The notes under the pieces are model-generated. The model searched no databases and had not been told where the DNA came from. It saw nothing but the letters and a program-made list of their open reading frames with translations. From contig JANJGN010000026.1 of the NCBI GenBank assembly GCA_026770705.1, positions 37,882,001 through 37,946,000 of the forward strand: 64,000 nucleotides of DNA, read 5' to 3'. This stretch comes from Isurus oxyrinchus. Taxonomy: Eukaryota. This document shows positions 3,100 to 48,960 of this stretch, in pieces (the first letter of the stretch is position 1; every line of letters starts with the position of its first letter). The translations under genes were made by a program, and so were the position numbers.

Positions 3100-3174
3100 A
3101 CTGACAGTGTGGTGTATTATTGCTCTCTCTGAGACTCACAGTGAAGAAGAGCAATCTCACCCCCGACAAAAACT
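3100..3174 (+). pseudogene. Orphan 3' end of a TCR alpha/delta-type V segment with intact RSS
   Basis: ACT GAC AGT GTG GTG TAT TAT TGC TCT CTC TGA GAC reads TDSVVYYCSL*D (compare DSAVYYCAL). It is followed by CACAGTG (3137-3143), a 22-nt spacer and ACAAAAACT (3166-3174). No recognisable upstream V sequence. Confidence 0.85.
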
Positions 3175-3552
3175 ACCTCTGGACTGTCGCTGGGAGCTCC
3201 TCTCTCTTTGGGGTTGTGTAGAATCGCGGGCAGATGTCGCCTCAATGTGCAGCCCGCTTTCAGGCGCTGAAACATACATCTAGAGGAAGCCAATTTAACC
3301 TCGGATCAAACTGTCACCCAACTGTTTTGAGAAGCGGTTGTAAAAACAAACTGCAGAATCCTATCATACTGTTAGGTCGAGCACAGCTTCAGTCTCCTGA
3401 TCAGTTGTTTATTCGCTTAATATTTCAAATCAGCTGGGAGAGCGAGGCCGCTGGCACTCAAGCGTCACTCAAAGCACGGCACTCGGCACAAGGCTAATGA
3501 GACTAATGCTGCCTGAAGCTCAGGGACACACAGAGACAGCAGACTGACGTCA

Positions 3553-7654: not shown

Positions 7655-8556
7655 TCACCAGTTAAATGAAGCAGTGAAGGTGGCGAAAAGGAACTTCAGC
7701 ATATTCTTCAGCTGCTCTCGGAAATTGGTCTGGGTCACTGCATAGATGAAAACATTGGTGCAGGAGCTGAGAAGCTGGAGCATGTTGGTCGTCTCTTGAA
7801 GGATGAATTGTGGGTCATTGAAGTCCAAGCCAGTGAAATATGCCTCACCTGTAGTCTGCACGTAGAGGAAATGTCCGACATGGGTGACCCACAGGAGGAG
7901 AAAGCTGAGGGAGATGGCGAAGAACAGGACAATGGACCTTTTACGGTTCTCCATCTCTGGATCTCTGTGACTCCCGGCTCCCCAGAGCCTCCTGTGGACT
8001 CTGCTGGCCGCTAAGATGTGCCTTACAGTCAATGCATTGAGCAGCAGAATGAGAAGGAACGGGAGGAAGTGGGTTAAGGTGCGGTCAAGCCAGTCGTAGG
8101 CCTGCCAGATGGGCAGAGTGTAATAGGTGGACTTGATGTTGCAGAACCAGGGCACCCCATCCAGAATATACAAGGGCTGGTAGCTGAAGTAGAAAGGGAC
8201 GTTTTTGACACAGCTCAGGGCACTGCCCAGTCCTATAACCAGTGATGCAGTTTTCTCGGTGCAGTATCTGGCCTTCAGGCTCTGACAGCAGATGGCCATG
8301 AAACGGTCAATGGTGAAGGCGACCGTCAGCCAGACTGAGCAAACCCGTGTAGCATAGACGAGCACGGAGCTGACAGCACACCCAGGGGTGGTGGAGAGGA
8401 CACTCTCACGAAAGTAGATGCCACCAATCCGGTTGAATATGACGGTGGTGATGATGACCAGGAAATCTGTCACCGCTATCGTCACCAGGTAGTAGGTGAG
8501 GCATCGTGAGAGCCTGCACAGGTCACGGGATAAGATTTTGATCGCCACCATGTTGG
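7655..8556 (-). CDS. Main coding exon of a GPR139/GPR142-like class A GPCR (first exon with the N-terminus and start of TM1 not located)
   Basis: About 300 open codons with hydrophobic helices, DRF (FTIDRFMAIC), an ECL2 Cys and a TM7 NxxxY motif (NVFIY). A strong acceptor ctcttttcctctcttacAG precedes the exon start at 8556. AATAAA lies just past the stop (7643-7648). The 5' extension of the ORF-track ORF (8557-8710) looks intronic. Confidence 0.85.
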
Positions 8557-9714
8557 CTGTAAGAGAGGAAAAGAGAGATATGTTACCGAGTGAACTCCAA
8601 ACACCAGTTGCTGCCTCATGCAACCTGTTACTAAAACCATCCTCACCTGTGCCTGTGCCACTTCCTGAGTCCAAGCATTCCAAAGCCGTAACTGCTTGTT
8701 TGGCATCCAATTCTGGATAAGTGCATATTTGATATAATTAAACATTTGAGAGTCAGAAGACATTGCCTTCAATCGCCACCAAAAACTCTGTTCTCTCACA
8801 ACTGAGTCCATCCTCCGAGGCTTGAGGCCCTTTACAATCTTGGCGATCCATTGAGCCAGAGCTGCGCTTCCAAACGTCCTCCTCCCTATGATGATCATCC
8901 AGCACCAAGACTGGTTGCTTCCACATTTCTAATATCGGCCATAATATCACACATCTCAAAACCTGCCTTAGGTTAGCAGCTGCTCAAGGTTTCCCCATAC
9001 ATTTGTAACATCTAGATGCCAACAATTGGAATAGTCTCTTGGTGTTCTCCCACTTTGGGTCATCAGTGATCTTAAGTCATCTGAAGCACTTGGTGGGAAT
9101 GTTCCTATTCACAGGAAGTCCCAGTCATCCATCACCCCTGTGTTTGCCCACTTACATTGGCTCCCAGCCTGGCAACACCTTGAATTTAATATCCTCATCC
9201 TTGCTTTCAACTCCACCCATAGCCTCGCCATTACTTACTCCAGTAACCCCAGAAATTAAATGTTCCACCGGTGGGAAAGGTGCCTTTTGCTGCCGTTGCC
9301 TTAATGTCTGGATATCCCTTCCTCAAATCCTTCACCTTTCTTACCTTCTACCAGGCTCTTCTTAAATCCTACTCCTTCGATGAAGATTTTGGTTATCAGT
9401 TCATGCCTTCCATTTGTAACATTGGCCAGGTGGATGTTTCCATATCTGCCGGTTGCCAATTCTGCGGCACAACTACCTCTCCTTCCCGCCAAACCATTTC
9501 TTTGATTCTCAATTAAGCAGTCACTAATTGTCAATACGGTTCTGAGATCCGATCTCGAAGCTAAAACCATTTCTTCCCATCGCTACCATGTTCCCAAGTA
9601 GTTCATGTTTTTAAGAGTCAGGTTAGATCATGTGTTTGATTGATTGGCATGTATTTGATTTCTTAATCATTTAGTGCAATCAGATCATTAAATTGACTTT
9701 TAGCTGAACAATTT

Positions 9715-12724: not shown

Positions 12725-12763
12725 GGTTTTTGTACCGCTCTCTCGGTGCTCTTTATTACTGTG
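12725..12763 (-). other. 23-RSS #3 (distal) downstream of supporting V-delta
   Basis: Minus strand: CACAGTA (12763-12757), 23 nt, ACAAAAACC (12733-12725). Confidence 0.85.
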
Positions 12764-12785
12764 TGTCTGCAATCCCACCATGTTA

Positions 12786-12824
12786 AGTTTTTGTACAGCG
12801 CCCTCCGGATTCTGTATCACTGTG
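12786..12824 (-). other. 23-RSS #2 downstream of supporting V-delta
   Basis: Minus strand: CACAGTG (12824-12818), 23 nt, ACAAAAACT (12794-12786). Confidence 0.9.
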
Positions 12825-12835
12825 CACCATGTGCA

Positions 12836-12874
12836 GGTTTTTGTACGGCCCTCTCCCTGCTCTGTATCAATGTG
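12836..12874 (-). other. 23-RSS #1 abutting supporting V-delta
   Basis: Minus strand: CACATTG (12874-12868), 23 nt, ACAAAAACC (12844-12836). Confidence 0.9.
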
Positions 12875-13180
12875 CAGTGCGCCGACTCAGTGCACAATAA
12901 TACACAGCGGAGTCGCTCACTGGTAGTTTGGCGATATTTAACCGGCTAATTTTCTCGGCAGGTTCGATAGAAGCAGAAATTCTTCCCCCGGCAGCATTTT
13001 CCTTATTCTCCTCTCCTGAAGCGTGCCTCTGAAGCAGATATGCGGGAGCCTGTCCTGGGGACAGACGGTACCAGTGTACTGTGTACTGACAGATACCTGA
13101 ATATTCACAGCTTAAAGTAACGGTGTCACCTGCAGCAGAGGTTTGTAGAGGCTGATTCTGGGATATCAGGAGACTGGAAT
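12875..13180 (-). CDS. Leaderless NAR-TCR-supporting TCR-delta V segment
   Basis: V-set ORF (TVTLSC…HWYRLSPGQAP…DSAVYYCAL) with a non-canonical CDR1 Cys (YSGICQY). Phase-1 acceptor tttttcaccctccAG, 3' RSS, and no leader exon recognisable upstream. It lies downstream of NAR-type V(D)J exons. Confidence 0.88.
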
Positions 13181-16835: not shown

Positions 16836-17180
16836 CAGCTGTGACAGTCACCTCTGTCCCGGAACCGTCTGCAGAACCATCTTTCCAAACGGAACCACAT
16901 CCATATTTATACTGAGCTTTACAGTAATAGGTGGCCGTGTCTTCAACTCTCAGATCCCGAATTTCCAGAGAAAAAATATTTTCTGCTTTATTCGTCGACA
17001 CAACAAATCTCCCCCCACTGGAGATCCGCTCCCTCTCAGTCCCAGTCTGGGTTTGTCTGAAGAAATGTCCGTCCTCTAAACGATGAGAATTACCATGGAA
17101 AAAGCAAGTGATGGTGAGGGACTGACACTCCTTCCTGGTCACCGCTGCCGCACTCTGTACCACTGACTGACTGAAAGAAC
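16836..17180 (-). CDS. Germline-joined NAR-TCR VDJ exon E (open, 345 nt, phase 1-1)
   Basis: SQSVVQSAAAVTRKECQSLTITC…GHFF…DTATYYCKAQYKYGCGSVWKDGSADGSGTEVTVTA. No RSS between V and J. Acceptor tttccAG, donor GTAAGT. Confidence 0.9.
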
Positions 17181-17328: not shown

Positions 17329-17371
17329 GGGGTAGAGAGGCACACAGAGTGAAAACAAGAAGGATTCCCAT
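17329..17371 (-). pseudogene. Leader exon of copy E with destroyed splice donor
   Basis: MGILLVFTLCASLP is followed by CTGAGT where the paralogs have GTGAGT. Read-through of the intron is out of frame with the V. Confidence 0.85.
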
Positions 17372-17908
17372 CGCTCTGCTGCCTAGAAAAGATGGTTACT
17401 TGATGCGAGCAGGAGATTGCAGCAATAAAAACAAGATGCTGGGGAAACACTGGAGTTCTGGCAGCATCTCTGGAGAGTGAAACCGGATTAAGGTTTCGAG
17501 TCCATATGACTCTTCTTCAGAGCTGCCAATGCCGGAAATTATTAAAACATCTCCCTGAACTGATTGTTGGAAACTCGTTTGACCGTTTGATTTAAGGGTG
17601 GTCGCTTTAGACCCGACCGCTTCCCTCCGTCCAGCAACTGAAGATCAGGTTGCAACATGAGACAGCCCAGTGACTTTGTTAACAATCAGGCAGAAGTGGA
17701 TACTAACAACAAAGCATGATCTCACCATATCTTTTAAACAAAGGCCTACTGCACTCCTTCCTCTGTGATTTGCCCTTGAAATTAAGTTACTAGGAAGTAG
17801 TGTTTGATTTCCAGGTCTGGCGAATTCAGAGTCTCGAGTTCCACTGATAGAACATGAAGCAACACTTGTGAAATCTGCTCATTATGTATAAACCGTCCTT
17901 GAACAATT

Positions 17909-18150
17909 ATCGACACAACAAATCTCCCTCTGCTGGAGATCCGCTCCCACTCAGTGCCGGCTTGGATTTGTCTAAAGAAATGTCCATCCTGTAAACTATA
18001 AGAATAACCATGGAAAACACAGGTGATGGTGAGAGGCTGACACTCCTTCCTGGTCACTGCTGCTGGGGCCTGTGTCACTGACTGACTTAATTAGTTTGTT
18101 TGTGTGAACCGTACTCACGAGGTAAACAGGCACAAAGGGAGGATTCCCAT
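17909..18150 (-). pseudogene. Truncated NAR-TCR V copy D
   Basis: The leader has an 11-nt deletion and the intron has collapsed to about 30 nt with the native acceptor removed. The V runs KECQPLTITC…RFVVS and then breaks into duplicated flank sequence, with no second Cys, CDR3 or J. Confidence 0.85.
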
Positions 18151-18204
18151 CGTCCTGCTGCCAGGATCTGATTGTTACATGACGCGAGCAGGAGATTGCA
18201 GCAA

Positions 18205-18440
18205 TAAAAACAGAAAATGCTGGAAAACTCAGCAGCTCTGGTAGTATCTGTGGAAAGAGAGACAGAGTTAATGTTTCAAGTTCGCCTGTCTCTTCTTCAG
18301 AGCTGCGAAGCAGAGTCATATTGGATTTGAAACGTTAACTCTGTTTCTCTCTCCACAGATTCTGCCAGGCCTGCTGACTTTTACCAGCATTTTCTGTTTT
18401 CATTTCAGATCTCCAGCATCCGCAGTATTTGGCTTTTATA
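18205..18440. mobile_element. Penelope-like terminal-repeat fragment pair in inverted orientation, inserted in the promoter of copy D
   Basis: 'aaaacagaaaatgctggaaaactcagcag…' is followed by its reverse complement. The same motif forms the end of the Penelope-like element at 38775. An orthologous insertion lies at about 22165-22660 and a remnant at 17425-17525. Confidence 0.7.
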
Positions 18441-20389
18441 TAGAGAATCACAGCTCTGGAGTACTTGAGGAGACTGGACCTCGGAGCTGGACTGAAATAC
18501 CTCAGGGAGTAGAGTTGCGTTGCAGAGGGCGGTGTCCCGTGGAGCATTGACGGGCCACACAGTTCCTGTCTCTCTGGTTGTTTGTTGTGTGAATAAGTGA
18601 CAGATTCAAAAAAGGAACCTGCAGTTTCATTTGGTTCATTAGGCCTATAAGCCTGAAGTGAAGCCCCCTCTCCCATTTGCCTGATGTACAGTGCAGGGCG
18701 GTGTGGGTGAAGGAAGGTAGGGTTGTTTCCATTAGTGAAACCGGCCGCCCACAGTAATGAACTGGCAGGCGCTTCCAAGTGTTTTTATAAGTGGTATATT
18801 CTGACAGTGGGATGTGGGAGAATCCCTCCTTCCCCAATACAATTCTCACTGTCATGAAAAACAGTAAACGCTGGAGAAACTCTGGAGTTCTGGCAGCATC
18901 TCTGGAGACTGGAACAGGGGTAACGTTTCGAGTTTGTATGACTCTTCTTCAGATCTGCCTGTGCTGGGAATTATTAAACATCTCCCTGAACTGACTGTTG
19001 GAAACTCATTTGACCTTTTGATCTAGGGTCGCCTTTGACCCGACAGCTTCCCTCCGTCCAGCAACTGAGGATGAGGTTGCAATATGAGACAGTCCAGTGA
19101 CTTTGCCAATATTCAGGCAGAAGTGGGTAATAACCACAAACAATAATCTTACCATATAATTTAAACAAAGGCCTAGTTCGTTCCTTCCTCTGTGATAGTG
19201 TTTGATTTCTAGGTCTGGTTAATTCAGAGTCTCCAGTTCCACTGATGGAACATGAAGCAACGCTCTGTGGGACAGTGAAATGCGGGTGGACACTGTGTTT
19301 GGGATTTATTTTAACGATCACAGTCACTACCTTTGTGAAATCTTGTCATTATGTATAAACCATCCCTGACCAATCAAGACATTCTTTTGAAAGAAACATT
19401 TGTGAACTGGCCACGGTCAAATGTTCTGGGAAACTGGGTGGGGAGAAAGACATGGGGCTGCTCAATAATCCAGGCAGGCATGGAAAGGGCCGAAAAGGGT
19501 TAAAAAAAGAAGTCTTCAGGACAACAGGGCTTCACGCCCACTGAGCATCCACAGCTCTCTGAGGTATAGAATGCTACTGGTTCACAACAACTTCTCTTCT
19601 CATTTCGCTTGGCCGACCCCTTATCATGAAAATGTGACCCCTAGTTATCGACTTCCCGGCCCGGGGAAACACGTACCCAGAATCTGCCCTGTCAGCCCCT
19701 TGAGAATATATGTTCTAATGAGGCCACCTCTCATTCCGCTAAACTGCATGGAACGTAGGCTTTGACCAGTTAATGTTTTGTCATAGGACAATCCCTTTAC
19801 CTTGGGAATCGTTATTATGAACCTTTCTTCACTTCCTTCAATGCATGTAGATCCGTTCTTAAGTATGAATCCAAAATAGCATCCAGACCTGAGGCCAGTG
19901 CAGTCCTTGCCGCACACAATACATGTTCCAATTGTTTTTAATACCGGGGAGTACTGATTCATCTGCTGAGGTAGCGATTGGGAGGTAGGTGGTAACCAGT
20001 AGGAGGGTTCCTTCCCATGTTTGGGCTGATGCCATGAGGCTTCATGGGATCTGGAGCCGTTGTTGAGGACTCCCAGGTGCAAGTCCCTGCTAATATGTCA
20101 CTGTGCCGCCACGTCTGGGTCTGTCCTGCCGGTGGCACAGGGCATGTACAGGGATAGTGATGGCCATGTCTAAGACATTGTCTGTCAGTTATGATTCCGT
20201 GAGTATGACTGTGTCAGGCTGTTGCTCGACAAACCTGTGGGAAAGCTCTCGCAATTTTGGCACAAATATTCAGATGTTAGTGAGAAGGACAATGCAGGGT
20301 GGACAGGCCTAGTTTGACATTATCATTTTCATAGCATAGGTCGATGGCAGGTGGTATGACGAGTGGTATACTCCAAGCTTAATTCCTTC

Positions 20390-21186
20390 TGTTATGACAC
20401 GGCATCTGCTAAAGGCTGAGTTATTTAAAATGCCAGAGGGAAATTTTAAACAACTTTCATAACCTATATTTTCAACTGGCATGTTTGAGAAGCAACTCTG
20501 AATTTAGAAATGAAACCATCAAACCTTCAGATGCCTTTAATATAAATTAAATTAAACATTTATTAATTTCATTAAGAAATTAAACACAAGTTACTACCAT
20601 AATAACTATTAAAGAAATCCCCTTATTCATCAATTCCATGTATTCTTCCCCAAGGAAACAATATCCCATAGACTTAAACAGATACCAGGCAAAGCACGTT
20701 TTTCCTAACGATTTCAAAATTAGGCTCCTTTCAAATGTTTCCTTGCCAGGCACAGTTGTAGGCTTACAGGCTGCTTAGATCATACATGCCTCTGACTTCC
20801 ACGTATGAAACTCTTCTGTATATACCTAGCCTTCCCTTTGAATGTAAATTCTCATTGGCTCAACAGACCCTTGGAACTCCGCCTCTTCTAACAATAAACC
20901 CGTTTCATAGTACCAATTTTATTAGTAATAAAAACATATTGATTGGTATTTCCTAATTTGACGCAAGGTTTCACTCCCAGTCTTTGAATGGTTTATTCAA
21001 TGAAATGCAAATGCACCCTCCACCTACTGATAAAATCTCAAAGCTACTATACATCAAAGCACACCGACTAGCTGGCTTTAATCCAATTAAGACAAAACAC
21101 AGTCACACCCATAGGCACAGATCCTAATTCAAGCCCAATTTAAAATTATTTCCAATAACATTTTATACCTTAATATGTTCATGACA
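20390..21186 (-). mobile_element. Solo-LTR-like element
   Basis: TGTTATGA…TCATGACA termini and a near-TSD cttc/attc. It interrupts sequence that is contiguous in the paralogous unit near 16430. Confidence 0.5.
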
Positions 21187-21574
21187 ATTCTTTTAAAATT
21201 TGATTCAAGTAACTGGATTGCTAGGCCATCATGTCACAGGGCATGTCAGAGGAAACCACATTGCTATGTGTCTGGGATCACACGTGGTGCAGACCAGGTA
21301 AGAATGGCAGATGACCTTCCTTTAAGGTCAATAGTGTGCTGAACAGTTTGGAAATATCGGCAACAGTTTTATGATCACCTTACTTTTTATTCCAGCTTTA
21401 ATTCATTGAACTTAAATTCCATCAGCTGCTGAGGTGGAATTTGAAGCAGGATTAACACACCGAGGATTGGCAGGGCCTCTGGCTACTAGTCCAATGATAT
21501 TACTGCTAGGCTACCCTTCCCTATTGCGAGCATTTATCTAGTTAGCAACACATCGCGGTTTTGGAGTCGCTTAC

Positions 21575-21919
21575 CAGCTGTGACAGTCACCTCTGTCCCG
21601 AATCCGTCTACATAACCATCTTTCCAAACGGAACCACATCCATATTTATACAGAGCTTTACAGTAATAGGTGGCCGTGTCTTCAACTCTCAGATCCCGAA
21701 TTTCCAGCGAAAAATTATTTACTGCTTTATTCATCGACACAGCAAATCTCCCTTCGTTGGAGATCCGCTCCCATTCAGTGCCTGTCTGGGTTTGTCCGAA
21801 GAAATGTCCATCCTGTAAATGATGATAATTACCATTGAAAACACAGGTGATGATGAGGGACTGACACTCCTTCCTGGTGACCACTGCCTGGGTCTGTGTC
21901 ACAGATTGACTGAAAGAGC
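21575..21919 (-). CDS. Germline-joined NAR-TCR VDJ exon C (open, 345 nt, phase 1-1)
   Basis: SQSVTQTQAVVTRKECQSLIITC…YYCKALYKYGCGSVWKDGYVDGFGTEVTVTA. Acceptor cttccAG, donor GTAAGC, no RSS. Confidence 0.9.
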
Positions 21920-22067
21920 CTGGAAGTTAAACAGAAAGAGTTTAATGGGCCATCAGAGCCAAAGTACAAAATGTGGCTCAAACCCCAGACAGTGTCTGTA
22001 ATTGGGATGGACTCCGGCAGCTTTAGGTAAAATGCACACAATGTTGGTTAGTTTGATTGGTAGCCAC

Positions 22068-22109
22068 AGGCTAAACAGGCAAACAGGACAAAACAAGCTA
22101 AGTTCCCAT
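22068..22109 (-). pseudogene. Leader exon of copy C, inactivated
   Basis: ATG GGA ACT TAG gives a stop at codon 4. The exon is 42 nt instead of 43 (frameshift) and the donor is weakened to GTGGCT. Confidence 0.85.
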
Positions 22110-22244
22110 TCTTCTGCTTCCTGGAGCTGATAGTTTGTATGACGGGGAGCAGGAGATTGCGGCAAGAAAAGCAGAAAGTGCTGGAAAAACTCAGCAAGAC
22201 TGGCAGCCTCTGTGGAGACCAACAGCGTTAACATTTCCAGTCGC

Positions 22245-22575
22245 TGTGGAGTGGTATTGTTTTTAGACTAGTAGCACAGGGACACAGAGCAATATTCTGG
22301 GTTCCCGGGTTCGAGTTTAGCCAAGGCAGATGGTGGAATTTTAATTGAATCAACATCTGGAATCAAAAGTCTAATGATGACCATAAAACCATTGTCGATT
22401 GTTGTAAAAACCCATCAGGTTAACTTATGCCTTTTAAGGAAGGAAATCTGCCAATCTTATCTGGTCTGGCCTACATATGACTCCAGACCCACAGCAATGT
22501 GGTTGTCTCTGAAATGCCCGGATAGGCAATAAATGCTGGCCTTGGCAGTAGCGCCCACATCCAAAGAATAAAATA
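22245..22575 (+). mobile_element. tRNA-derived SINE nested in the Penelope-like promoter insertion
   Basis: A-box-like tggagtggta and B-box-like ggttcgagt, a conserved body and an A-rich end. Confidence 0.7.
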
Positions 22576-23981
22576 AAAGGGTTTGCCAGAACTGCTGAGG
22601 TTTCTCCAGCATTTTCTGTTTTTATTTCAGATTTCTAGCATCCGCAGTATTTTGTTTTTATGTAGGAGACTGCAGCTCTGAACTGCTCAGGGAGACTGCA
22701 ACTCAGAGCTGGACTGAAATATTTTAGACTGTACAGTTCATTTGCCGAGGACTATGTCCTTCGGATGATTGATGAGCCGCCCCATTTCCATCTCTCTGGT
22801 TGTGTGTTGCCTGAATGAGTGACAGGTTTAAAAACGGAACCAGCAGTTTCATGTTGCTTCTTTGGGTCTGGAAGCCTGATGTGAAGTCCCCTCTCCCATT
22901 TGTCTGATGTACAGTTGCTGGCGGGATGGGGCGAGGGAGGTGGAATTGTTTTCGTTAGGAAAGTCTGCCTTCCTCATTTTACCACAATAATGAGATTGCA
23001 GGTGCGTCCATGTGCTTTTAATAAGAGGTATTTTTTGAAGGTGGGATGTGGGAGAATCTCTCTGTCTCCAATATTGTCCTAACTGTAATTAAAAGCAGGC
23101 GGAAACTGGAAAAACCCAGGATATCTGGCAGCACCGACCGTAGGGTGAAACAGAGTTAACGTTTCGAGTCCCTATGACACTTCTTCAGAGCTGCCTCTGC
23201 CGGAAATTGTTAAACATCTCCCTGAACTGGCTGGTGGGACTTCATTTGACCGCTTGATCAAAGGGAAGAAGCCTTACATCCGCCTTAGACAAGCAACTGA
23301 GTATCAAGTTGCAATATGAGGCAGTCCAGTGACTTCCCAATGTTCAGGCAGAAAGAATCAACTCTCCATATCATTTAAACAAAAGCTCGTTGCACTCCTT
23401 CCGTTGTGATTTGCATTTGAACTGATCTATCCAGTAAACTATGCTTGATTTCCAGGTCTGGATTACTTAGATCTTCCAGTTGCAATTATAGAACATGAAG
23501 CAACACTGAGAAGGGCAATAGAAATGCGGGAACACGGTTTTTCTTTTGGATTTTATTTAAAGATCACAGTCACTGCCTTATGAAAGCTATTCATTGTGGA
23601 TTAGTTGTCCCTGATCTAACAACACTGTTAAAATATAGCTCGTGAACAGTGCTGCGGCAAAATCCTGGAACTCCCTCCCTAACAGCACTGTGGGTGTACC
23701 TACACCACATGGACTGCAGCGGTTCCGGAAGGCAGCTCACCATCACCTTCTCAAGGGAAACTAAATGCTGGCCCAGCCAGCGAAGTCCACATCCCGTTAA
23801 TTTTAAAAAAAGCTATCTGCTCCAACATTTCCCCGTGGCAGTAAGTTTCAAATCCTGGCGTGCTTTTGTTTAAATTTATCTTACTTAATGCCTTTATTTT
23901 TTTTTTGTTAGTGAGGATCATACATTGACGGCCCATTCCTCTGGACTCGCCCACAAAATAAACTTTTGCTCCACATCCACC

Positions 23982-25940
23982 CATAAGACCATAAGACATA
24001 GGAGCAGAAATTAGGCCATTCGGCCCATCAAGTCTGCTCCGCCATTCAGTCATGGCTGACAAGTTTCTCAACCCCATTCTCCCGCCTTCTCCCCATAACA
24101 TTTGACCCCTTACCAATCAAGAACCTATCTATCTCGTTCTTAAATATACTCAATGACCTGCCTCCACAGCCTTCTGTGGCAATGAATTCCATCGATTCAC
24201 CACTCGTTGGCTAAAGAAGTTTCTCCTCATCTCTTGTTCTAAAAGGTCTTCCTTTTACTCTGACGCTCTGCCCTCGGGTCCTAGTCTCTCCTACTAATGG
24301 AAACATCTTCCCCATGCCCACTCTATCCAGGCCTTTCTGTATTCTGTAAGCTTCAATCAGATCCTCCCCTCATCCTTCTAAACGCCATCGAGTATAGACC
24401 CAGAGTCTTCAAACGTTCCTCATATGTTAATCCTTTCATTCTTGGGACCATTCTAATGAACCTCTTCTGGACCCTCTCCAGGCCCAGCACATCCTTCCTG
24501 AGATATGGGGCCCAGAATTGCTCACAATATTCTAAATGTGGTCTGACCAGAGTTTTATAAAGCCTCAGCAGCACATCCCTGCTTTTATATTCTCGTCCTC
24601 TCGAAATAAACGCCAACATTGTATTTGCCTTCGTAACTACCGACTCAACCTGCAAGTTAGCCTTAAGAGACTCCTGACTAGGACTCCCAAGTCCTTTTGC
24701 ACTCCAGATTTTTGGATTCTCTTCCCAATTAGAAAATAGTCTATGCCTCTATTCTTCCTACCAAAGTGCATGACCTCACACTTCCCCACGTTGTATTCCA
24801 TCTGCCACTTCTTTGCCCATTCTCCTAACCTGTCCAAATCCTTCTGCAGCCTCCCCGCCTCTTCAATACTACCTGTCCCGCTACTTAGCTTTGTATCATC
24901 TGCAAACTTTACCAGAATGCGCTCAGTTCCTTCATCTAGATCATTAATGTATAAAGTGAAATGTTGTGGTCCCAACCTGACCCCTGCAGAACTCCACTAG
25001 TCACCGGCTGCCATCCTGAGAAGGACCCCTTTATCCCCACTCTTTGCCTCCTGCCAGACAGCCAATCTTCTATCCATGCTAGTACCTTCCCTCTAACACC
25101 ATGGGCTCTTATCTTACTGAGCAGTCTCCTGTGCGGCATCTTGTCAAAGGCCTTCTGGAAGTCCAAGTAGATAAGATCCATTGGCTCTCCTTTGTCTAGC
25201 CTACTCGTTTCCTCCTCAAAGAATTCTAAGTGATTTGTCAGGCATGACCTCCCCTTGATGAAACCATGCTGACTTTGCCCTATTTTACCATGCACTTCCA
25301 AGTATTCTGAAATCTCATCCTTAATAATGGTCTCTAAAATCTTACCAACGACGGAGGTCAGGCAAATCGGCCTGTAATTTCCCGTCTTTTGCCTTACTCC
25401 TTCTTAACCAGGGGGGTTACATTAGCGACTTTCCAGTCCTCTGGGACCCTCCCTGACTCGAGCGATTCCTGAAAGATCATCACTAATGCCTCCACTATCT
25501 CTTCAGCTATCTCCTTCAGAACTCTGGGGTGTAATCTATCTGCTCAAGGTGATTTATCCACCTTCAGAGCTTTCAGTTTACCTTGCACCTTCGCCTTGGT
25601 AATGGCCACCATACTCATCTCTGCCCCCCGACTCTCTTGAACAAGGGGGGTGTTACTCATGTTTTCCACTGTGAAGACTGACGCAAAGTTCCTATTCAAT
25701 TCCTCCATCATTTATTTGTTCCCCACTACTACTTCTCGAATGTCGTTTTCCAGTGGCCCAATGTCCATTTTTGCCTCTTTCTTATCCTTTATATATCTGA
25801 AAAAAAAAACTCTTGCAATCTTCTTTTATATTACTGGCTAGTTTACCCTCATATTTAATCTTCTCCCTCCTTATTTCTTTTTTAGTTGCCCTCTGTTGGT
25901 CTTTGTAGGCTTCCCAATCCCTTGGTTTCCCACTGCTCAC
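23982..25940 (-). mobile_element. CR1-clade LINE, relatively young, 5'-truncated
   Basis: QHGFIKGRSCLTNHLEFFEE, IYLDFQKAFDK, KFADDTKL, LYKTLVRPHLEYC and a (cataagac)n tail. Frameshifted. Confidence 0.92.
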
Positions 25941-27306
25941 CCAGTGAACACATTCATTATTTAGAAGATTTCTCTGAATTCTCCTCATGTTTCTCTGTTT
26001 TCCAGAGAAAAGAAACCAAGTCTGTTCAGCCTTTCCAGACAGATGTCGATTGTTGTTCATTTACTTTCTAAAAAGTGAAAGAAATCAAAGAAGGTAACAT
26101 AAGAAATAGGAGCTGCTGCCACCTTTCAAATCTGCTCCTCTATTCAAAAATATAGTGGCTGATCTCCGTCCTCAATATCACATTCCCGCACTGTCCCCAT
26201 ATCCCTTGATTCTTTCAGAGTCCAAATATCTATGAACACTGCCTTGAATACACTCACTATTGAGTATCCACAGCTCTCTCATGTATAGCACGTTACGGAT
26301 TCACAACAATATTTTGACGGAAGACAACTCTCCTCTTCTCAGTTCTAATGGCCGACCCCATATTCTAAACTCTGACACCTGGAGAAACACCAACTCCACA
26401 AGCTGCCCTGTTAGGCCCCTTAAGAATACTTCATGTTCCAATGATATCAGCTGTTATTCCTTCAAGCTCGAGGGAATCTATGCTTTGACTACGTAACTTC
26501 TCCTCATAGGACAATCCGTTTGTCTCTGGAATCAGTATGATGAACGTTGTTCACTTCCTCCAAAGCACGTAGATTTTTTCTGAAGAATGAGCCCCCAAGT
26601 TTACACAGCATTCCAGACTGGAGCCCATTGTAGTCATTGCCACACTCAATGCTCCCTCCAATTAATGTTCAATACGAAGGAAAACTGATTCATCAGCTGG
26701 TGGGTCGGTGGTAATCAGCTGGAGGTTTCCTTACCCATGTTTGACTAGATGCCATGAGACCTCATGGTGTCTGGCGTCGATATTGAGGACTCCCAGGGGC
26801 AACACCCTGCTGAGTGTATATCACTGTGCAGCTACCTCTGGGACTGTCCTGCTGGTGGCACAGGACATACACAGGAACAGTGATGGTGGTGCCTAAGACA
26901 TTGTCAAAAGGCTATGATTCTCTGAGCATGACTCTTGTCAGTGTGTTGCCAGTGACTAGGCCATCATTTCAGGGAGCATTTAAGAGTAAACCACATTGCC
27001 TTGTGTCTGGAGTCGCATGTGGGTTAGACGAGGTTCAAATGGAATGTTTCCATCACTGAAAGACATTCGTGAATCAGATAGCTTCCAGCAATGATTTCAT
27101 GATCACTAGTTTAAATTCCAGTTGTTTATATTATTTGATTTTTAATTCCACCAGTTGCTGTTGGTGGGATTTGAACCCGATTTCCCAGCTCATTTGCCTT
27201 GCCCTCTGGATTACGAGTCCAATGACTTTACAACTAGACTGTCCCCTCCCCGATGTGAACATTAACCTGGATACTCTGTAACACATGGCGGTTTGGTGTC
27301 ACTTAC

Positions 27307-27654
27307 CGTCAGTGACAGTCAACACCGTCCCTGATCCGTCTCCATAAACATCTTTCGAAACGGTGCTCCCACATCTATATCTGTACTGAGCTTTACAGTA
27401 ATAGGTGGCTGTGTCTTCAACTCTCAAATCTCGAATTTCCAGCGAAAATGTCTTTTCTGCTTCATTCATCGACACAACAAATCTCCTTCCGCTGGAGATC
27501 CGCTCCCGCTCTGTCCCAGTCTGGGTTTGTTTGAAGAAATGCCCGTTCACTAAACTATGAGAATTACCAGATAAAACACAGGTGATAGTGAGCGACTGAC
27601 ACTCCTTCCTGGTCACCGCTGCCGGGGTCTGTGTCACTGACTGACTGAAAGAGC
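27307..27654 (-). CDS. Germline-joined NAR-TCR VDJ exon B (open, 348 nt, phase 1-1)
   Basis: SQSVTQTPAAVTRKECQSLTITC…YYCKAQYRYRCGSTVSKDVYGDGSGTVLTVTD. Acceptor tttccAG, donor GTAAGT, no RSS. Confidence 0.9.
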
Positions 27655-27802
27655 CTGGAAATTAAACAGAGAGAGTTTAATGGACATTCAGAGCCGAACC
27701 ACAGAACGGGGTTAAAACCCCAGACAGTGTCTGTAATTAGCATGGACTCGGGCAGCTTTATACTAAATCCACACATTGTCGGTTTGTTTAACCGATACTC
27801 AC

Positions 27803-27845
27803 GGGGTAAACAGACACAGAGGGTGAAAACAAGGAGGATTCCCTT
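27803..27845 (-). pseudogene. Leader exon of copy B lacking its start codon
   Basis: ATG is changed to AAG at 27845-27843 (KGILLVFTLCVCLP). No in-frame ATG lies in the open stretch upstream; the ORF-track start at 27911 is GTG. Confidence 0.85.
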
Positions 27846-30800
27846 CGTTCTTCTGACTGGAGCTGAGGGCTTATATGACGGGAAGCTGGAGACTGCAGCC
27901 CTGGACAGCACTGGGAGACAGGACCTCAGAGCTGGACTGAAATACTTTAGGAGCTAGAGGGGGGTGCAGACGGGGGTGTCCCGCGGAGCATTGACGGGCC
28001 ACACGGTTCCCATCTCTCTGGGTGTGTGTTATGTGATTAAGTGACAGGTTTAAAAACGGAACTTGCAGATTCATGTTGCTTCATTGGGCCTGTAAGCCTG
28101 ATGCGGAGTCCCCTCTCCCATTTGTCTGATGCACAGTGCCCTGCGTAATGGGGCAAGGGAGGTGGAGTTGTTTCCTTAGTGAAGTCTACCGCCCTCATTC
28201 TCCCACAGTAATGAGCTGGCATGTCTGTCCATGTGTGTTTGGCAAATGGTATTTTATGAGAACGGGATGTGGGAGAATCCCTCCTTCTCCAATATTATTC
28301 TAACTGTCATGAAAAAACAGAAAATGCTGGAAAGAGCTCGTCAAGTCTGGCAGCATCTGTGAAGAGTGAAACAGAATTAACGTTTCAAGTTGTATGACTC
28401 TTCTTCAGAGCTACCTGTGCCGGAAATTATTAAACATCTCCCTGAACTTGCTGTTCGGTCTTCAGTTGAAAGTCTGTCCCAAGGGAAGGAGCCTTACACC
28501 CGCCTTAGTCCAGCAGCTGAGGACCAGATTACAATGTGAGACAGTCCAGTGACTTTGCCAATATTCAGGCGGAAGTACAGAAATACCACAAAGAATAAAC
28601 TCTCCACTTCATACAAACAAGTGCTTGCTGCAACCTTCCCCTGTGATTTGCATGTAAAATGATGCTGCCAGAAAGTAATGTTTGATTTCCAGGTCTGGAC
28701 TATTCAGTTTCCAGTTGCAGTGTTAAAACATGAAGCCTCTCTCAGAGGCACAGTTGAAATGGGGGCGGACACTGTGTTTGGGGCTTGTTTAAAGTATCAC
28801 ACTCACTACCTTGGTGAGATCTGTTAGCTGTGTTTAAACTGTCCAGAATCTAACAACACGTTCTATTGAAGTGAACCTTGTGAACCGGCCGCGGTCAAAT
28901 GCTCCTGGAAACTGACGGGTACAAGGACATGGAGCTGCTCAGTAATCCAGGCAGGCATGCAAAGGGCAGAAAAGGGCCAATAAACTCCTTCAGGAGCAGA
29001 GGACCTCACACTATTTTGGTCGACTGTTCATCACACAAACATGGCCGATCGTACGTCACTCAAAAGTGGTCGATTGTTCAAACGACCTTTGAGTAGCTCC
29101 GGATGGTCTGTCGCTGATCCCCAATGTGCAATCAAAGACATAAACATCATCTGTTTCGTCAAAAACTAAAATAAAAACCTGAAAAAGCCTTTTTGCTTGA
29201 TCCACAAGTTTTGCACATGAAATATTGTCCAATTTCCTTCTGATTTTGAATGCTACTGGCGTGAAACAGCGCAGAACAGCACATGACGTAAACATGTTTT
29301 GCCTCAGAGCTACCACAAATACAACTTGTATTTTAAAGCACATTTAATACAATGAAAGGTCCCTTCAGCAGGTAATGACAGTGATCTTCGTAAAACATGA
29401 ATCCTGAGAGGCGGATGTGGCCGATCACCCGAGTCACCGTCTGCAATGTGGGACCGCGGATACATTTTGGCATCATAATTACCAACACTCAGATTGTAGC
29501 AGTTTAATTTTAAGAGACTACGATTATTTAAAAGCAACCGGAAGGAGAAATATTATCTGAATGTTTTTCAATCAGCATTTGTTTGGAAGAAAAACATAAT
29601 TTATTCTATCAATAGGTTTAATTATTCCCCAATGCCATTTATTTTGATATATTTACATTTACTTTCACTTTGTTTCTCAATTTCCTTTGTGCAGTTTGCG
29701 CTTCTTGCATGGGAACGTAGTAATCGTGGGAACTTGCCCCAAGGTTTCTCATTTGTCCGTTGGGTTCAGTCTGTTCAGTTTCCGCAGTAGTTTTACTGTT
29801 ACTCACTGGGAACTGCGTCTTCTCCCTCTCTGACGATTTCAATTTTTTTCCGTCCATTTACTGGTTGAAGTTACCTGGATGTTTTACTTTACACAGTATC
29901 TGCCAGAGGAGGAATAATCCATACCGTTCAAATGATTTATGCCTTTGCATTTACTGGGGACCAGTCCCCATTCTCCTGAAATCTAATTGACAATTTCCAG
30001 TCAGCTCCCTCTGTCAGTCTGTTCTGTTCTCCTTCCTGTATTTTCAAGTCTTCCCATAAATGTATCAATACCATCTGCTCCAACCATTCCCTGCGGCAGC
30101 AGGTTCCACACTCTGACCTGCCTGTTTTTACACTTCTTCTTAATGTCATTATTTGTTCTGTGAGTGACTGTCTTATTCTAATGGCTCTAGGCTCACCCAC
30201 AAATAAGCAGCTATTCCACAAATACCTCAAATGAACCCGTTCGTTATTTAAACAACTTCCATGAATTCTCCTCCTCTTTCCATGTTCTCCAGAGACAAGA
30301 GGCTCAGCCTGTTCAACCTCTCCAACGAGATGCAGATTCTCCCTGATTTCTTTTCTCAGATGTGTAACAGATCAAAGCAGTTAATGTAACAAACAGAAGC
30401 AGGAGCAGCCATATCACCTTTCAAACCTTTTCCACCATTCATAATATCCTGACTCATCTCCTAGCTCAACATCACTTTGCCGCAATGTCCCCATATCCCT
30501 TGATTCTTTTAGCATCCAGAAATCCATTGAACACTTCATTTAAAACATCCAACTACTGGGCATTCACAGCTCTCTGAGGAAGAGAATGTCAGAGATTCAC
30601 AACAATGGCTTCACTGAAGAAATTTCTCTTCGTCAAATTTCTCATGGTCGAGTTCTTATTCTGAAACTGTGACCCCTAGTTATAGGCTTCTCAGCCTGGG
30701 GAGACACCCACCGGGAATCTATCGTGCCCTGGATGTTAGATTTCTAATGAAATTGCATCTCATTCATCTAAGCTCCAGGGAACATAGGCTCAGACAACTC

Positions 30801-31880: not shown

Positions 31881-32263
31881 CACAGTGACACCGCTCACAA
31901 TCACCACCGGTACAAGAACCACCGACACCTCGACCTGGCGGTAAATCATTATCAGACAGTGGAAACTGCCCAATTATTCAGCGGATTTAAATAAATAAAC
32001 AATATTCAATGTTTCAAAGTCTCTCTCGGTTCAAACTGTTCTTTGTGAGGCCCTGAGCTCTGAATAAATAGTCCCAGGAACGAGATGTTCGCTTCATATA
32101 AACCGAGAAAAATATCAAAGAAAGATAACTGAATGTTGGAAATTACAATGAAATGGAACCAGATTCCAGCGATAATAACATCAACCCGACAATTCACTAT
32201 CCAGGCCCGGAGAATTTATATTTAAATTATACAGAGGTGTTTGTTCAGGTCTCTCCCACTGTG

Positions 32264-32280: not shown

Positions 32281-32673
32281 CACAGTGTTACAAGTCAGCA
32301 TAAAATCCCCCGGGCACTTGGTAAGATTTGGGGACATTAGTTAAACAGCGGGGACTGCGGTTCCCGGTTCCAGTTGTTAGACCAGGATCACATCTGGCGT
32401 TAGGGATTTCTAACTGGGATCAGTCATTCCCAATTCCCATTCACTGACACCAATCCCAGGAAAGGCATCACCATCCGCACACACTGGGCATTTATAAAAC
32501 TCAAGATGTTAACAGCAATAATCCAATCTCATTATAAACTAGACTGTGGGGCAGACGGTGTGAGGCGGAACTGTGGGGGTTTAACTGCAGATTAACTCTG
32601 CTTTTTCATTTGTTTCTGTGATAATCGGCAGTGAGAGTTTTTGTATCGCGGGAAGCCGAGACCCATCACTGTG

Positions 32674-32957
32674 TGTCGTACTGTAATGAGCTTTACAGTA
32701 ATAGGTGGCGGTGTCTTCAACTCTCATGTCCCGAATTTCCAGCGAAAATGTCTTTTGTGCTTTATTCACCGACACAACAAATCTCCCCCCGCTGGAGATC
32801 CGCTCCCACTCAGTCCCGGTCCGGGTATTTTTGAAGAAATGTCCCGTTTGGAATTCATGCCACGAAGCACCGGAGAAAACACAGGTGATGGTGAGAGACT
32901 GACACTCCTTCCTGGTCACCGCTGCCGGGGTCTGTACCACTGACTGACTGAAAGAGC
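32674..32957 (-). CDS. NAR-TCR V segment A (unrearranged, intact)
   Basis: VNAR-like V lacking a conventional CDR2, with an extra FR1 Cys (RKECQ), ending YYCKAHYSTT. RSS: CACAGTG (32673-32667), 22 nt, ACAAAAACT (32644-32636). Acceptor tttccAG. Confidence 0.93.
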
Positions 32958-33104: not shown

Positions 33105-33147
33105 GGGGTAAACAGACACAGAGGGTGAAAATAAGAAGGATTCCCAT
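33105..33147 (-). CDS. Leader exon of NAR-TCR V segment A (the only intact leader in the cassette)
   Basis: ATG, MGILLIFTLCVCLP, 43 nt, donor GTGAGT, 147-nt intron, in frame with the V exon. A TATAAA lies at 33177-33172. Confidence 0.9.
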
Positions 33148-45229: not shown

Positions 45230-46830
45230 CTGTTCATATTAAACTTGACCTTTGACTGTATATATTACACTCAGTGATGTCTCTGATCGTATTACAACAG
45301 GTTGTGTCTCAGTTGTTTCTATAATAGGTCAATCTCAGTCAATATACAGGACAAAGACCATGTTACACTATACATTTTCTCAGTTATCACTGCACTAAAC
45401 CATGTCTAGTCTAATATGACAATAGTCCATGTCTCAGTTGGTACTGCACTGGTACTTGTCTCTACTTAGACGAAACCAGAACATCTCCCTGTTTACATGA
45501 CACGAGGCTCTGTCTCAGTTATTGCACTACTAGACTTTGCCATGTTTATACTAAACTAAGAGATGTCTTGGCGAACGCTGCGCCAGTCTATTTCTCTGTT
45601 TATATCACACGATGCCCTGTCATTGTTATTATTGCATAATACCGTGCCTCTTTCTTATTGCTGCACTTGCCCACATCTCTGTTTATATTAATCCAGGTCC
45701 TATGTTGGTAGTTATTGCACTAGGCGCTGCCTCAGTTTATATTAGACAAGGTCCTATATCAGATGAAACTGCAACAGATCCCGTGTCAATTTCCTTTCAC
45801 TAGATCCTGCCCCAGTCATTACTGAACTAGACCATGTCGGTGTTCATATTACACAAGACACTGTCTCAATTATTACTGCACTCGGCACTGCCTCACATTT
45901 TACTCCACTACATCATGCCTCTGTTTATATTACACTAGATCACCTTTTTACTCATATTCTGTTAGACCCTATCTCAGTTTATATAACACTCGACCCTGTC
46001 TCAGTTTATATTACAGTAGACCCCATCTCAGATAATATTATACTGGAGCCCGTCTCGGTTTATATTACACCAGAGCACATCTGTGTTTACATTACAATAG
46101 ACCCTCTCTCCGTTTTTATTACACTAGACCCTGTCTCAGGTAATATTACACTAGACATTTCCTCTGTTTATATTGAAATCGGCCCTATCAATGTTATTTC
46201 TGTGTAGGTCATGTCTCTGTTTATACTACACAAGGCCAAGTCTGTTATCACTGCACTAAATCCTGGCTCAATAATTGCTGATACTAGGCCCAGCCTTCGT
46301 TTGAATGACCGTGGATGCTGTATCAATAATTGGTGCACTCGGCCCTGTCTCAGCATTACGGCACCAGACCCTGACTTTGTTTATATTGAAATGGATTATG
46401 TCTATGATAATATTACATCAGTTCCTGCCTCAGTTATTTCAGTGCTCGGCCCCGTCTCAGCTGCTCCTGAATTCGGCCGTGGCTCTGGTTGTATTGCATG
46501 CGGAAAAGTCTCAGTTATTACTGCTCTGGGCCCAGCGTCTGTATATACAACGCTAAACCCTGTCTTAGTAGCTGCTGCACTAATCCAATCATCTCTTCCC
46601 TGTCCCTGTTTCTATTCCACTAGATCATGTTTTTGTTTATCTTACACTATAGGCAATCTGAGTTATTATTGCACCAGACCCTGTCGAGGGTGTTATTAAT
46701 CCATGTGCCGAATCCATCATTACTGTTCTAGCCACGAGAGAGGATTAGTATCAATTGACCCAGTGCTTAGTGCGCTAACCCTGCCTCGGTTATTTCTACG
46801 CTTGGCCATGTCTCTGTGATTCCTGCAACT
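45230..46830 (-). repeat. Degenerate 27/54-bp satellite, reverse orientation
   Basis: Units such as actagaccctgtctcagtttatattac, the reverse complement of the 55-64 kb unit. Confidence 0.8.
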
Positions 46831-47287
46831 GTGAGTTGGAGAGAAATTATTATACACAAAGATGTTGAGGTGGGGATTGTTCCCTGGCGTTGGCCTCAAA
46901 CGGGCGGTATTGGATGGCCCGTTCTTTGCAGCACCTGATAGTTATTTTCATTAAGTTTTAGTCAAAGAAATGATAGATCAGATATGGTCAGTTATGTGTG
47001 CTGTATAGAAAAAAAAACATACTTCTTGCTTAGACCGCCGTTTCTCAAAGATAAATGATGATCTTTACCCGAATGTTTCAATATTTAATTTTCTCTTACT
47101 CAAACTGTCACTGCGGATTATTTAGTGCTGTAAATATTTATTGATAGCATGTTTCGTTGTTTACTTTTGCTTAGAAAGTGATGTCATACTAACACTTCCG
47201 TCACTAAGACGAGCATGTTTATCACCAAACTCATTGAATGTCCTTTGTTTCTCTGTCCGAGGCAGCGTCTAACTCAGTGAACCTCTA

Positions 47288-47397
47288 CTCTCTCTCTCTC
47301 TCGCTCAACCTTTCTTTCTCTCTCTCTCACTCTCTCTCTCTACCCACCATCTAACTCCCGCCCCCCACACCCCCGCTCTCTCTCTCTCTCTCTCTCT
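47288..47397. repeat. (CT)n microsatellite
   Basis: Directly visible. Confidence 0.9.
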
Positions 47398-48049
47398 GAG
47401 ACAGTCCCTTATTCATTTTGAATCTCCTGATATCTAATAACACTCTTTGGAGAATTTTTTTTTTCACAATTTCTCTTCATTTCTCCCAGTGACAACTTTC
47501 AGTCCACTCTTGCCTTCAGTGATTGTGTTCAAATCCAAAACTATGCATTTAGTTAAATTGTAGATTGTTTAATACTGTAAGTATTTAGTGATAACCAGTC
47601 TGTTGTGTGCATTTGTTTATAAAGTGATCCCAGACTAACAATTTCGTTTCTAAGGTGCTTTATCTGTCTCCGCTGATCAATTGGAAAACGGAGTAAATCA
47701 CATCCAGAAGAACCAGCAGTTTATTAACAAATGATCACCTCAGTATCTCTCAGAAGCTCCTGGTAATCTCGAATGTGTGATGATTTGTGCAAGTGATGGC
47801 AAAAATCAAACTTTACCTACACCTCACATGAGACTCATACACCTGTAATTCTCCGGTTTATTTTTCCTGTTGATGGGAAGGAGTGAAACTCCTGCTGCTC
47901 TCCAGAGACTTTCAGAATTTCTGCTTCCACTTTTTTTAACTGCTTTCTTCACAAATTCCACCACAACCACTCGAATCATGTTTGGACGGATTAGTTTAAG
48001 TGCAGGTTGCATATTCAATGTAATCTTAACGAAAATAAACCATGGCCTA

Positions 48050-48960
48050 GTCGAGTATAAAAAGAGATCGAACTTGATGTAACATAAACAGAGATATGGG
48101 TTACTGCATTAATAACAGAGACAGTATCTGGTTTAACATAAAAGGAGATATCGACTAATGAATTAATAACAGAGACAAGACCTGGTGTTATATAACCAAG
48201 GATATGGGCTCGTGCAGTAATATCAGAGACAGGACCTGGTGTAATATAAACATAGGTATCGGCTAGTGTAAGTAATAACAGGCACAATACCTAGTATAGC
48301 ACAGGCAGAGGCATGTGCTAGTGCGGTGATAACACAAATTGACCCAAGGAGTCAAATAAACAGATAAATTGGCTAGTTCAGGAATCAGAGAGAGGGAGAA
48401 CTTGGTATAACATTGAATGAACCGATATTTGTATGATCATAATAACAAAAACACTTTGTATAAAATAACAACTGAAAGAGGTCATGGCGAAACACTAGCG
48501 GAAACAGGGTCAACGTTAACAATATCAGGATCAGGTTACTATTGAAAACTGATTGGCACAAGGTTTTCAGAAATAATGAGAGAGGTTTGCATTAGGATTG
48601 AATGACATGTAGGCTCTTCGGGCAACCATTACAGAGACAGCGTTTTATACAATGAGATTGGATATAGAGAACAGATTAAAAGCGGTAAAGCTGTGTAATT
48701 AGTGCAATGTTTGATGATAACAGAGGATAGCAGTGAATCACTGAATACATCACTGGATCCAGTGTGATAATGATACAGTCAGCACCTGATCCACCCAAAT
48801 CGAAGTTGGGTCTGATATAATAGTTTGTGTGAGACAGCGCCAATTGATACAATAGCAAATCTTTTGCCTAATGCCTAATAACAGAGTCAAGCACGACTGC
48901 AATATGAATGGGATGGAGTTGGTGCAATAACACTGACACAGTCTAGTGTAATAGCAAATA
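48050..48960 (+). repeat. Degenerate 27/54-bp satellite, forward orientation
   Basis: Units such as gtgtaatataaacataggtatcggcta and gtgcagtaatatcagagacaggacctg. Confidence 0.7.

Follow-up and report, generated by a model that had tools for sequence, protein, structure and literature searches.

The window, i.e. the whole stretch of DNA analysed, comprises 64,000 nt of Isurus oxyrinchus (GCA_026770705.1, JANJGN010000026.1:37,882,001-37,946,000), and all feature coordinates are relative to it (Table 1). Its minus strand carries a shark NAR-TCR delta cassette in which a rearranging leader-V-D-J unit (A) is followed by three joined exons (B, C and E) and then by a leaderless supporting V-delta. 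RSS-flanked segments for somatic V-D-J rearrangement are present for A, the D segment and J; the J RSS spacer is 24 nt, 1 nt above that of paralogues. In B, C and E the V, D and J parts are already fused and lack RSS, the leader intron is still present, and the typical leader peptide found in A is absent. A, B, C and E all match V-set (Pfam), with VNAR domains as the top PDB matches, and all carry the a-b loop cysteine (RKECQS) and GHFF, i.e. no WYRK tryptophan. The supporting V-delta fits the supporting type of NAR-TCR in its lack of a leader, its CDR1 cysteine and its downstream 23-RSS; only one poor leader-like match was found across 3.65 kb upstream of it. A single 47-residue query gave no match to C-delta.

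Table 1. Features of the NAR-TCR delta cassette in the window, in order of transcription
Feature	Position	Strand	Remarks
Unit A leader exon	33105..33147	-	Intact, 43 nt, ATG, GTGAGT donor
Unit A rearranging NAR-TCR V exon and RSS	32636..32957	-	V 32957-32674; consensus heptamer, 22-nt spacer
D segment	32236..32308	-	D itself 32280-32264; 12-RSS on either side
J segment	31828..31920	-	J itself 31880-31828; phase-1 GTAAGT donor
B dead leader	27803..27845	-	ATG>AAG, donor intact; promoter region still A-like
B germline-joined NAR VDJ exon	27307..27654	-	348 nt, open, phase 1-1
C dead leader	22068..22109	-	TAG at codon 4, 1-nt loss (42 vs 43 nt), weak donor GTGGCT
C germline-joined NAR VDJ exon	21575..21919	-	345 nt, open, phase 1-1
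Unit D, broken fourth unit	17908..18150	-	Leader and intron shortened, V truncated, sister to C-type exons
E dead leader	17329..17371	-	Open, but donor GT>CT (CTGAGT)
E germline-joined NAR VDJ exon	16836..17180	-	345 nt, open, phase 1-1
Supporting TCR-delta V	12875..13180	-	No leader found, CDR1 Cys, phase-1 acceptor, open
Three tandem 23-RSS behind supporting V-delta	12725..12874	-	Heptamers at 12874, 12824, 12763

An earlier sequence-only reading had described about 1040 nt of joined exon without stop or frameshift, a length difference of one codon and six intact splice dinucleotides. All of this was confirmed: B, C and E amount to 1038 nt, contain no stop, have lengths that are multiples of 3, differ by the one codon of B, and are each bounded by AG and GT. 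The three units are as that reading gave them, but its count omits unit D, in which the leader (18150-18119) is 11 nt short and V is cut off at 17908. Unit D groups with the C-type joined exons, so the exon was kept in three of the four units of the array. In a structure model of the B exon (pLDDT 83) the CDR3 cysteine lies at the end of the CDR3 hairpin strand.

The lesions previously reported in the leaders of B (start codon), C (stop, 1-nt loss, weak donor) and E (donor) are all present in the sequence. In addition, a repeat takes the place of the upstream promoter in C and E, and the TATA-like box of E has decayed. Among paralogues on several contigs, 3 further units share the AAG start, 13 the codon-4 stop and 4 the CT donor. 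Since each lesion recurs on other contigs, all three are real, and assembly error, named beforehand as a possible source, is ruled out; the lesions are inherited lineage marks rather than three events private to the window.

The genome-wide set consists of 28 joined units, 25 of them with a full-length exon. Leaders are dead in 25/28, by at least four different types of lesion, with ATG and GT retained in three B-type units. Among A-type leaders, 19/21 satisfy the ATG/open/GT test, and two damaged A units have lost the leader donor as well; G-run insertions are present in the damaged A units. The exon is open in 19 of the 28 joined units and broken in nine, besides fragment D, and a stop was acquired in the sister lineage of E. 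AG and GT were found in all 25 full-length exons examined, and all 19 open exons are divisible by 3. All units except one (27/28) are flanked by an A-type unit on one side and a supporting V-delta on the other, the remaining one being without an A within 20 kb. The 19 open exons belong to 11 cassettes, each with an open A and an open V-delta; the six broken full-length exons belong to six cassettes in which A is damaged or absent or V-delta is broken, and these represent approximately 2-3 independent events. The CDR3 cysteine codon is conserved in 28/28 joined units, a conservation that on its own could be due to chance. V-D-joined NAR-TCR units are also present elsewhere in the genome.

In a neutral simulation at 0.10-0.20 substitutions per site per lineage, three intact exons were obtained with P ≤ 0.007 and three dead leaders with P between 0.09 and 0.48. 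Retention of the exons is thus unlikely under neutral decay, whereas three dead leaders are the neutral expectation once a leader is no longer required; the asymmetry, held earlier to be improbable as a whole, is so for the exons but not for the leaders, which decay at the intron rate. Within the clade sharing the codon-4 stop, 10/10 exons are intact (P ≤ 0.011 in the simulation) and dN/dS is 0.55 (p=0.009). The tree length of this clade is 0.26 for the exon, 0.57 for the intron, 0.58 for the 3' flank and 0.60 for the dead leader, and the exon has 0 gaps where 297 nt of flank has 7. Sequence immediately 5' of the leader evolves slowly too (0.28-0.31), which makes the neutral rate uncertain twofold, and conflict between the flank and exon trees indicates recombination, blurring the time since leader loss. 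Across 25 joined exons the overall omega is 0.61 (p=6e-4 against 1). The slowest part of the exon is CDR3-J (0.17), whose omega of 0.65, tested by itself, falls short of significance (p=0.46). No purifying signal was detected on B-type branches (omega 0.87 with the AAG leader, 1.19 with the open leader). The V parts of C/E types form a separate clade (98%) with no rearranging V inside; this and the slow CDR3-J argue against maintenance by conversion with functional V genes as donors. For the C/E types no wholesale conversion by rearranging V genes was seen, the B types being less well resolved. C/E-type exons are under constraint after leader loss.

Transcripts were checked in eight contigs from runs guessed to be RNA, tissues unspecified. 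None of the eight contains a junction from J to a joined exon or from a joined exon to V-delta, a productive transcript with a joined exon, or C-delta. In one, a B-type J donor is fused precisely to the acceptor of a rearranging-type V; this junction, at depth 3, is most readily taken for a back-splice, and its 3' half has no counterpart among the assembled copies. Two others run from sequence that is not a leader into a joined exon, using its acceptor; these match stop-bearing paralogues, so splicing alone does not amount to function. The role as a support domain, as the sequence-only reading had proposed it, was not borne out by these contigs or by the B-type omega values.

The same CDR3 types are open in gene models of white shark and basking shark. 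Protein searches gave 63, 4 and 69 matches, of which 68 sequences were scanned and the 8 newest matches were left out. Tandem NAR domains occur among the 68 only in gene models P0001 and P0003 (the latter from horn shark), and in no cDNA-type sequence. In most other models the apparent CDR3s look like artefacts of reading through the RSS, and were therefore not counted as joins. The white shark model LOC121270138 (P0004; pLDDT 39 in a single-sequence fold model) covers 8,832 bp. In the matching Isurus cassette the V-delta heptamer lies 8,824 bp away from the ATG of A and 3,546 bp away from the leader belonging to the unit itself, so P0004 probably uses a borrowed, upstream leader, and not an intact leader of its own as was first supposed. 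The leader of P0005 likewise looked at first like an intact own leader.

The joined exons go back to one ancestral join in which the leader intron was kept. Survival of this intron and of the dead leader indicates joining at the DNA level and rules out a retrotransposed origin. As symmetric phase-1 cassettes the exons are likely to be spliced in from the promoter of A. The reading preferred here, held tentatively and at just short of an even chance, is that B, C and E are leaderless in-frame cassette exons of a transcript begun at A, encoding predicted invariant V domains above V-delta. A leader-V-D-J unit would have been duplicated, and its V-D-J then joined by RAG in the germline; leaders no longer needed would have decayed neutrally, while the joined exons were spliced into the A-begun transcript, one or more being included in a productive chain. 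The predicted domain or domains would separate the rearranged NAR V from the supporting V-delta, probably lying beneath the former, and may be stacked by bonding of the fixed CDR3 cysteine with the a-b loop cysteine in the next domain up. A bolder proposal, which we consider unlikely though worth stating, is that lamniform TCR-delta chains reach up to five V domains, with a rearranged NAR V on a stalk of 1-3 germline-joined, invariant NAR domains; the CDR3-to-a-b-loop disulfide would lock each domain to its neighbour, and stalk length would be set by cassette and exon skipping. Against the preferred reading stand the lack of either expected junction among the eight contigs, the 24-nt J RSS spacer of the window cassette, the B-type omega values, the three B-type units in which ATG and GT survive, and the broken units (9/28 and fragment D).

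Constraint and leader decay would be accounted for equally well if the A leader were spliced directly to a joined exon when only V-delta has rearranged, making that exon the N-terminal invariant antigen-binding domain of an innate-like NAR-TCR. The A leader ends in phase 1, compatible with every joined acceptor, the span of P0004 suggests this use of an upstream leader, and CDR3-J is the most conserved part. However, P0004 is a predicted model; the CDR3 cysteine would be left unpaired; and a stop interrupts the joined exon of each of two cassettes in which the A leader and V-delta are intact while the A V is abnormal (one shared event), which is unexpected under such splicing. This borrowing of the A leader is regarded as improbable. 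Doubtful also is a history in which each exon was formerly expressed with its own leader and has since begun to decay, the frames being still open owing to earlier selection, recent duplication and recombination between copies. The broken units, the omega near 1 on B-type branches, the stop in the sister lineage of E, the evident recombination and the lack of a productive transcript among the eight contigs are all in keeping with such relics. They are difficult to reconcile with the constraint inside the clade sharing the leader stop (omega, intact exons, absence of indels, lowest rate), and strong phase-symmetric splice sites in an active transcription unit would be expected to be included by default. 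That leader loss was itself selected, preventing truncated free-cysteine chains from internal promoters, is very improbable: at least four lesion types disable 25/28 joined leaders vs 19/21 A-type leaders passing, but neutral decay yields three dead leaders of three with P between 0.09 and 0.48, the two damaged A units lost their leader donor too, and an open leader persists in three joined units.

The available sections of PMC1845163 give a leader, an a-b loop cysteine and no WYRK tryptophan as marks of the NAR-TCR V, and lack of a leader with a CDR1 cysteine as marks of the supporting V-delta. Unit A and the V-delta here carry these marks of the doubly rearranging TCR-delta, and the parallel drawn earlier with leaderless supporting V-delta genes is apt. 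In the published chain there are two V domains and each of them is rearranged, whereas here J and V-delta are separated by 1-3 joined VDJ exons whose leaders are dead. In table S1 of PMC12227049 (2025) white shark LOC121270133 is labelled 'NARTCR V(gj)V(gi)V', where 'gj' is read as germline-joined. By species and description it is probably P0001, in which two C/E-type CDR3s stand in tandem and the V-delta is identical in 98/100 residues to cassettes here. The text of PMC12227049, in the portions available, does not discuss the labelled model, leaders, selection or splicing, and the literature searched yielded the label without a description of the arrangement. Germline joins (VD-J, VDJ, VJ) are known from immunoglobulin loci of cartilaginous fish, according to the accessible part of PMC6795676, and V-D-joined units occur here too; those clusters have their own C exons, whereas the joined exons lie within a TCR cassette and have no working leader. 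If expressed, they would make an antibody-like T-cell receptor longer or supply it with an invariant domain for binding, and they render a model of leader loss in supporting V domains testable. Marsupial TCR-mu Vmuj is similar in being a germline-joined invariant V downstream of a rearranging V-D-J, and the exon phases would allow Vmuj-like splicing directly after the rearranged V and before the remainder of the chain, a junction seen in none of the eight contigs. This is a likeness in working, not in membership: Vmuj lacks the leader intron and is ascribed to retrotransposition (PMC2275272), adjoins C and pairs with V-gamma, whereas the shark exons retain the intron together with a leader, albeit dead, occur alongside a V-delta that itself rearranges, and can stand in tandem. 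They would be a second case of a germline-joined TCR support exon, reached by a different route, and a stalk of such domains, if real, would mark a second, independent origin with the dead leaders still present; the intermediates (V-D-joined units, VDJ-joined units with open leaders and units with dead leaders) are still visible.

The window holds one NAR-TCR cassette on its minus strand (see table). A domain search found a V-set domain in unit A, the rearranging leader-V-D-J unit, and in the germline-joined VDJ exons B, C and E. All four have an a-b loop cysteine and are without the WYRK tryptophan, and V-delta has a CDR1 cysteine and no leader, which are the published NAR-TCR marks (PMC1845163). 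VNARs were the closest solved structures to B, and the closest named proteins were from white and basking sharks (79-89% identity). The J RSS spacer (31881-31920) is 24 nt long versus 23 nt in the paralogues checked, and may lower rearrangement of this cassette.

Features of the cassette and of related loci (positions in the window, or on contigs C26, C140 and C210 of the same genome, set G000)
Feature	Position	Strand	Remark
Unit A leader	33147-33105	-	first in transcription order
Unit A V	32957-32674	-	RSS after it
D segment	between unit A V and J	-	two 12-RSS
J segment	31880-31828	-	
Joined exon B	27654-27307	-	
Joined exon C	21919-21575	-	
Fragment D	18150-17908	-	between exons C and E
Joined exon E	17180-16836	-	
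V-delta	13180-12875	-	last; then three tandem 23-RSS
V-delta 23-RSS	12725-12874	-	first heptamer CACATTG, second consensus
Degenerate V 3' end	3100-3175	+	good RSS, 22-nt spacer; no intact V upstream
Rhodopsin-family GPCR	7658-8737	-	single open frame (Pfam 7tm_1)
Degenerate long satellite	45,600-64,000		27/54-bp units
A-type V exons with G-run insertion	G000 C26:36,381,662 and 25,227,144; C140:1,304,981; C210:747,054		
V-deleted joined units	G000 C26:29,983,646, 30,010,083, 30,032,698		
Apparent V-D-joined V genes	L025-L029; G000 C26:29,987,221, 33,158,073, 36,381,662, 29,842,352		NAR-TCR V loci

The observation made in the sequence-only reading is real: all the leader lesions that it listed for B, C and E are present, as is the open joined exon (1038 nt in total over the three). 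It left out unit D, a broken fourth unit distinct from the D segment, in which the leader is shortened and V truncated; this unit clusters with C-type exons in the tree (96% bootstrap). In C, D and E the promoter is disturbed as well, its upstream part being replaced by a repeat and its TATA-like box altered. Every joined exon is in phase 1 at both ends. Since the leader of A, the donor of J and the acceptor of V-delta share that phase, whatever subset of the exons is included keeps the frame.

Of the 715 candidates in the genome protein search, 150 were scored and yielded 151 matches; DNA searches with the two joints, meant to catch broken copies, scored 40 out of 104 candidates in one case and all 10 in the other. 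Twenty regions were taken besides the window. At least 28 joined units were found in 18 cassettes, the window's among them, although some of the small contigs could represent alternate haplotypes. Nineteen of the 28 exons are open, five contain a TAG, one is frameshifted and three have lost most of V. In the V-deleted units listed in the table, a single deletion at a shared short sequence took away the acceptor along with most of V. Leaders are disabled in 25 of 28 (codon-4 stop in 14, CT donor in 5, AAG in 4, ATA in 2), and the remaining three are open with a GT donor, yet have Asp in the hydrophobic core. A-type leaders pass in 19 of 21 cases, both failures being AT donors in damaged units. 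The 19 open exons sit in 11 cassettes with the A and V-delta frames both open, and the six broken full-length exons in cassettes with the A V deleted, frameshifted, G-run-expanded or missing, or with V-delta broken. This link rests on just 2-3 independent events; one A unit in cassettes with broken joined exons is still in frame, and V-deleted units and fragment D are found in cassettes with an open A. The G-run insertions in A-type V exons vary in length at the same spot and may be real or sequencing noise.

The CDR3s of the two joined-exon classes, B-type and C/E-type, are alignable, one codon apart, and the 3' intron is common, showing that both derive from a single join. The beginning of the join agrees with germline V ends, its middle is D-like and its end agrees with a germline J from a neighbouring cassette. 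Since the leader intron is retained, the exons were likely produced by a germline DNA-level join. Many leader-bearing NAR-TCR V genes look germline V-D joined, ending in 12-RSS-like sequence, and appear to be an intermediate stage of the same process.

Comparison of four same-label runs, presumed to be RNA, with exon B yielded eight contigs, some of which use joined-exon splice sites. In one contig (depth 3) a B-type J donor is connected, precisely at the exon boundaries, to a V acceptor. The V part of this contig corresponds to the rearranging A gene at C26:38,769,354, with 13 substitutions and 5 gap letters as seen against 14 and 5 when computed, and the other half is B-like, with no match among assembled copies; the contig may represent a back-splice of two exons, a circle formed by one exon of an unseen hybrid, or inter-cassette read-through. 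Two contigs match stop-bearing paralogues, entering at the acceptor from non-leader sequence; the upstream piece of one maps to the intron, 1.07 kb upstream, and that of the other was searched for and not found. Window positions 28808-28837 are homologous to the intronic piece that one contig splices to a paralogue's joined-exon acceptor. Four contigs lie over an unspliced leader-intron region belonging to some paralogue; the last one covers a V 3' end. No productive chain with a joined exon was seen among the eight.

B, C and E differ pairwise by dS of 0.21-0.35, dN of 0.10-0.15 and intron distances of 0.21-0.25. The claim that dead leaders beside open exons are unlikely under neutral decay held for the exons and not for the leaders: neutral simulation at 0.10-0.20 substitutions per site per lineage gave P ≤0.007 for three intact exons and 0.09-0.48 for three dead leaders, and the exon result weakens to 0.006-0.22 at 0.03-0.05 substitutions. 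Because the divergence may be older than leader loss, the clade sharing C's codon-4 stop is a cleaner test; 10 of its 11 full-length members were used (one identical exon dropped), and three V-deleted members, unalignable, were left out. Its exons have an omega of 0.55 (p=0.009) and a tree length of 0.26, whereas the intron reaches 0.57, the 3' flank 0.58 and the dead leader 0.60. At the mildest setting, P was ≤0.011 for 10 of 10 intact and ≤0.043 for at least 9. Across 25 full-length joined exons omega is 0.61 (p=6e-4). Taken with the simulation, these rates indicate that leader decay is neutral and that C/E-type exons are constrained; selection for leader loss itself, widespread as the loss is, becomes very improbable. 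That the joined exons are decaying relics is unlikely on the same grounds. Several results stand against constraint: omega of 0.87 and 1.19 on B-type branches, a constraint test on CDR3-J alone that was not significant, a region upstream of the leader that is slow as well (0.28-0.31) and visible recombination between units.

Our tentative preference, with somewhat less than an even chance, is that the joined exons would be transcribed from A's promoter and spliced in beneath the rearranged NAR V. Every joined exon has the a-b loop cysteine at the domain base and a fixed CDR3 cysteine, which in the structure model of B lies at the end of the CDR3 hairpin strand; the pair would permit a stacking bond like that proposed for NAR V and V-delta. 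The main rival, use as an invariant N-terminal domain behind A's leader, seems rather unlikely, and can operate together with insertion under V.

Gene predictions carry the joined exons into other sharks. White shark models have both CDR3 types (P0001, in tandem, P0002 and P0004), and basking shark models P0005 and P0064 have the B-type. In horn shark (Heterodontus), gene model P0003 shows another kind of repeated junction, one that lacks Cys: it runs from a J piece through two tandem NAR junctions with identical Cys-less CDR3 to V-delta. This may be an independent germline join. One white shark model is labelled 'NARTCR V(gj)V(gi)V' in table S1 of PMC12227049, and this entry suggests that tandem joined exons had already been noticed by specialists. 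The literature search, in the portions of text it covered, returned no description of such exons or their leader loss, and an earlier mention is possible. Beyond that table label, and as far as those texts extend, the joined leaderless exons are a so far undescribed variant of the known NAR-TCR theme.
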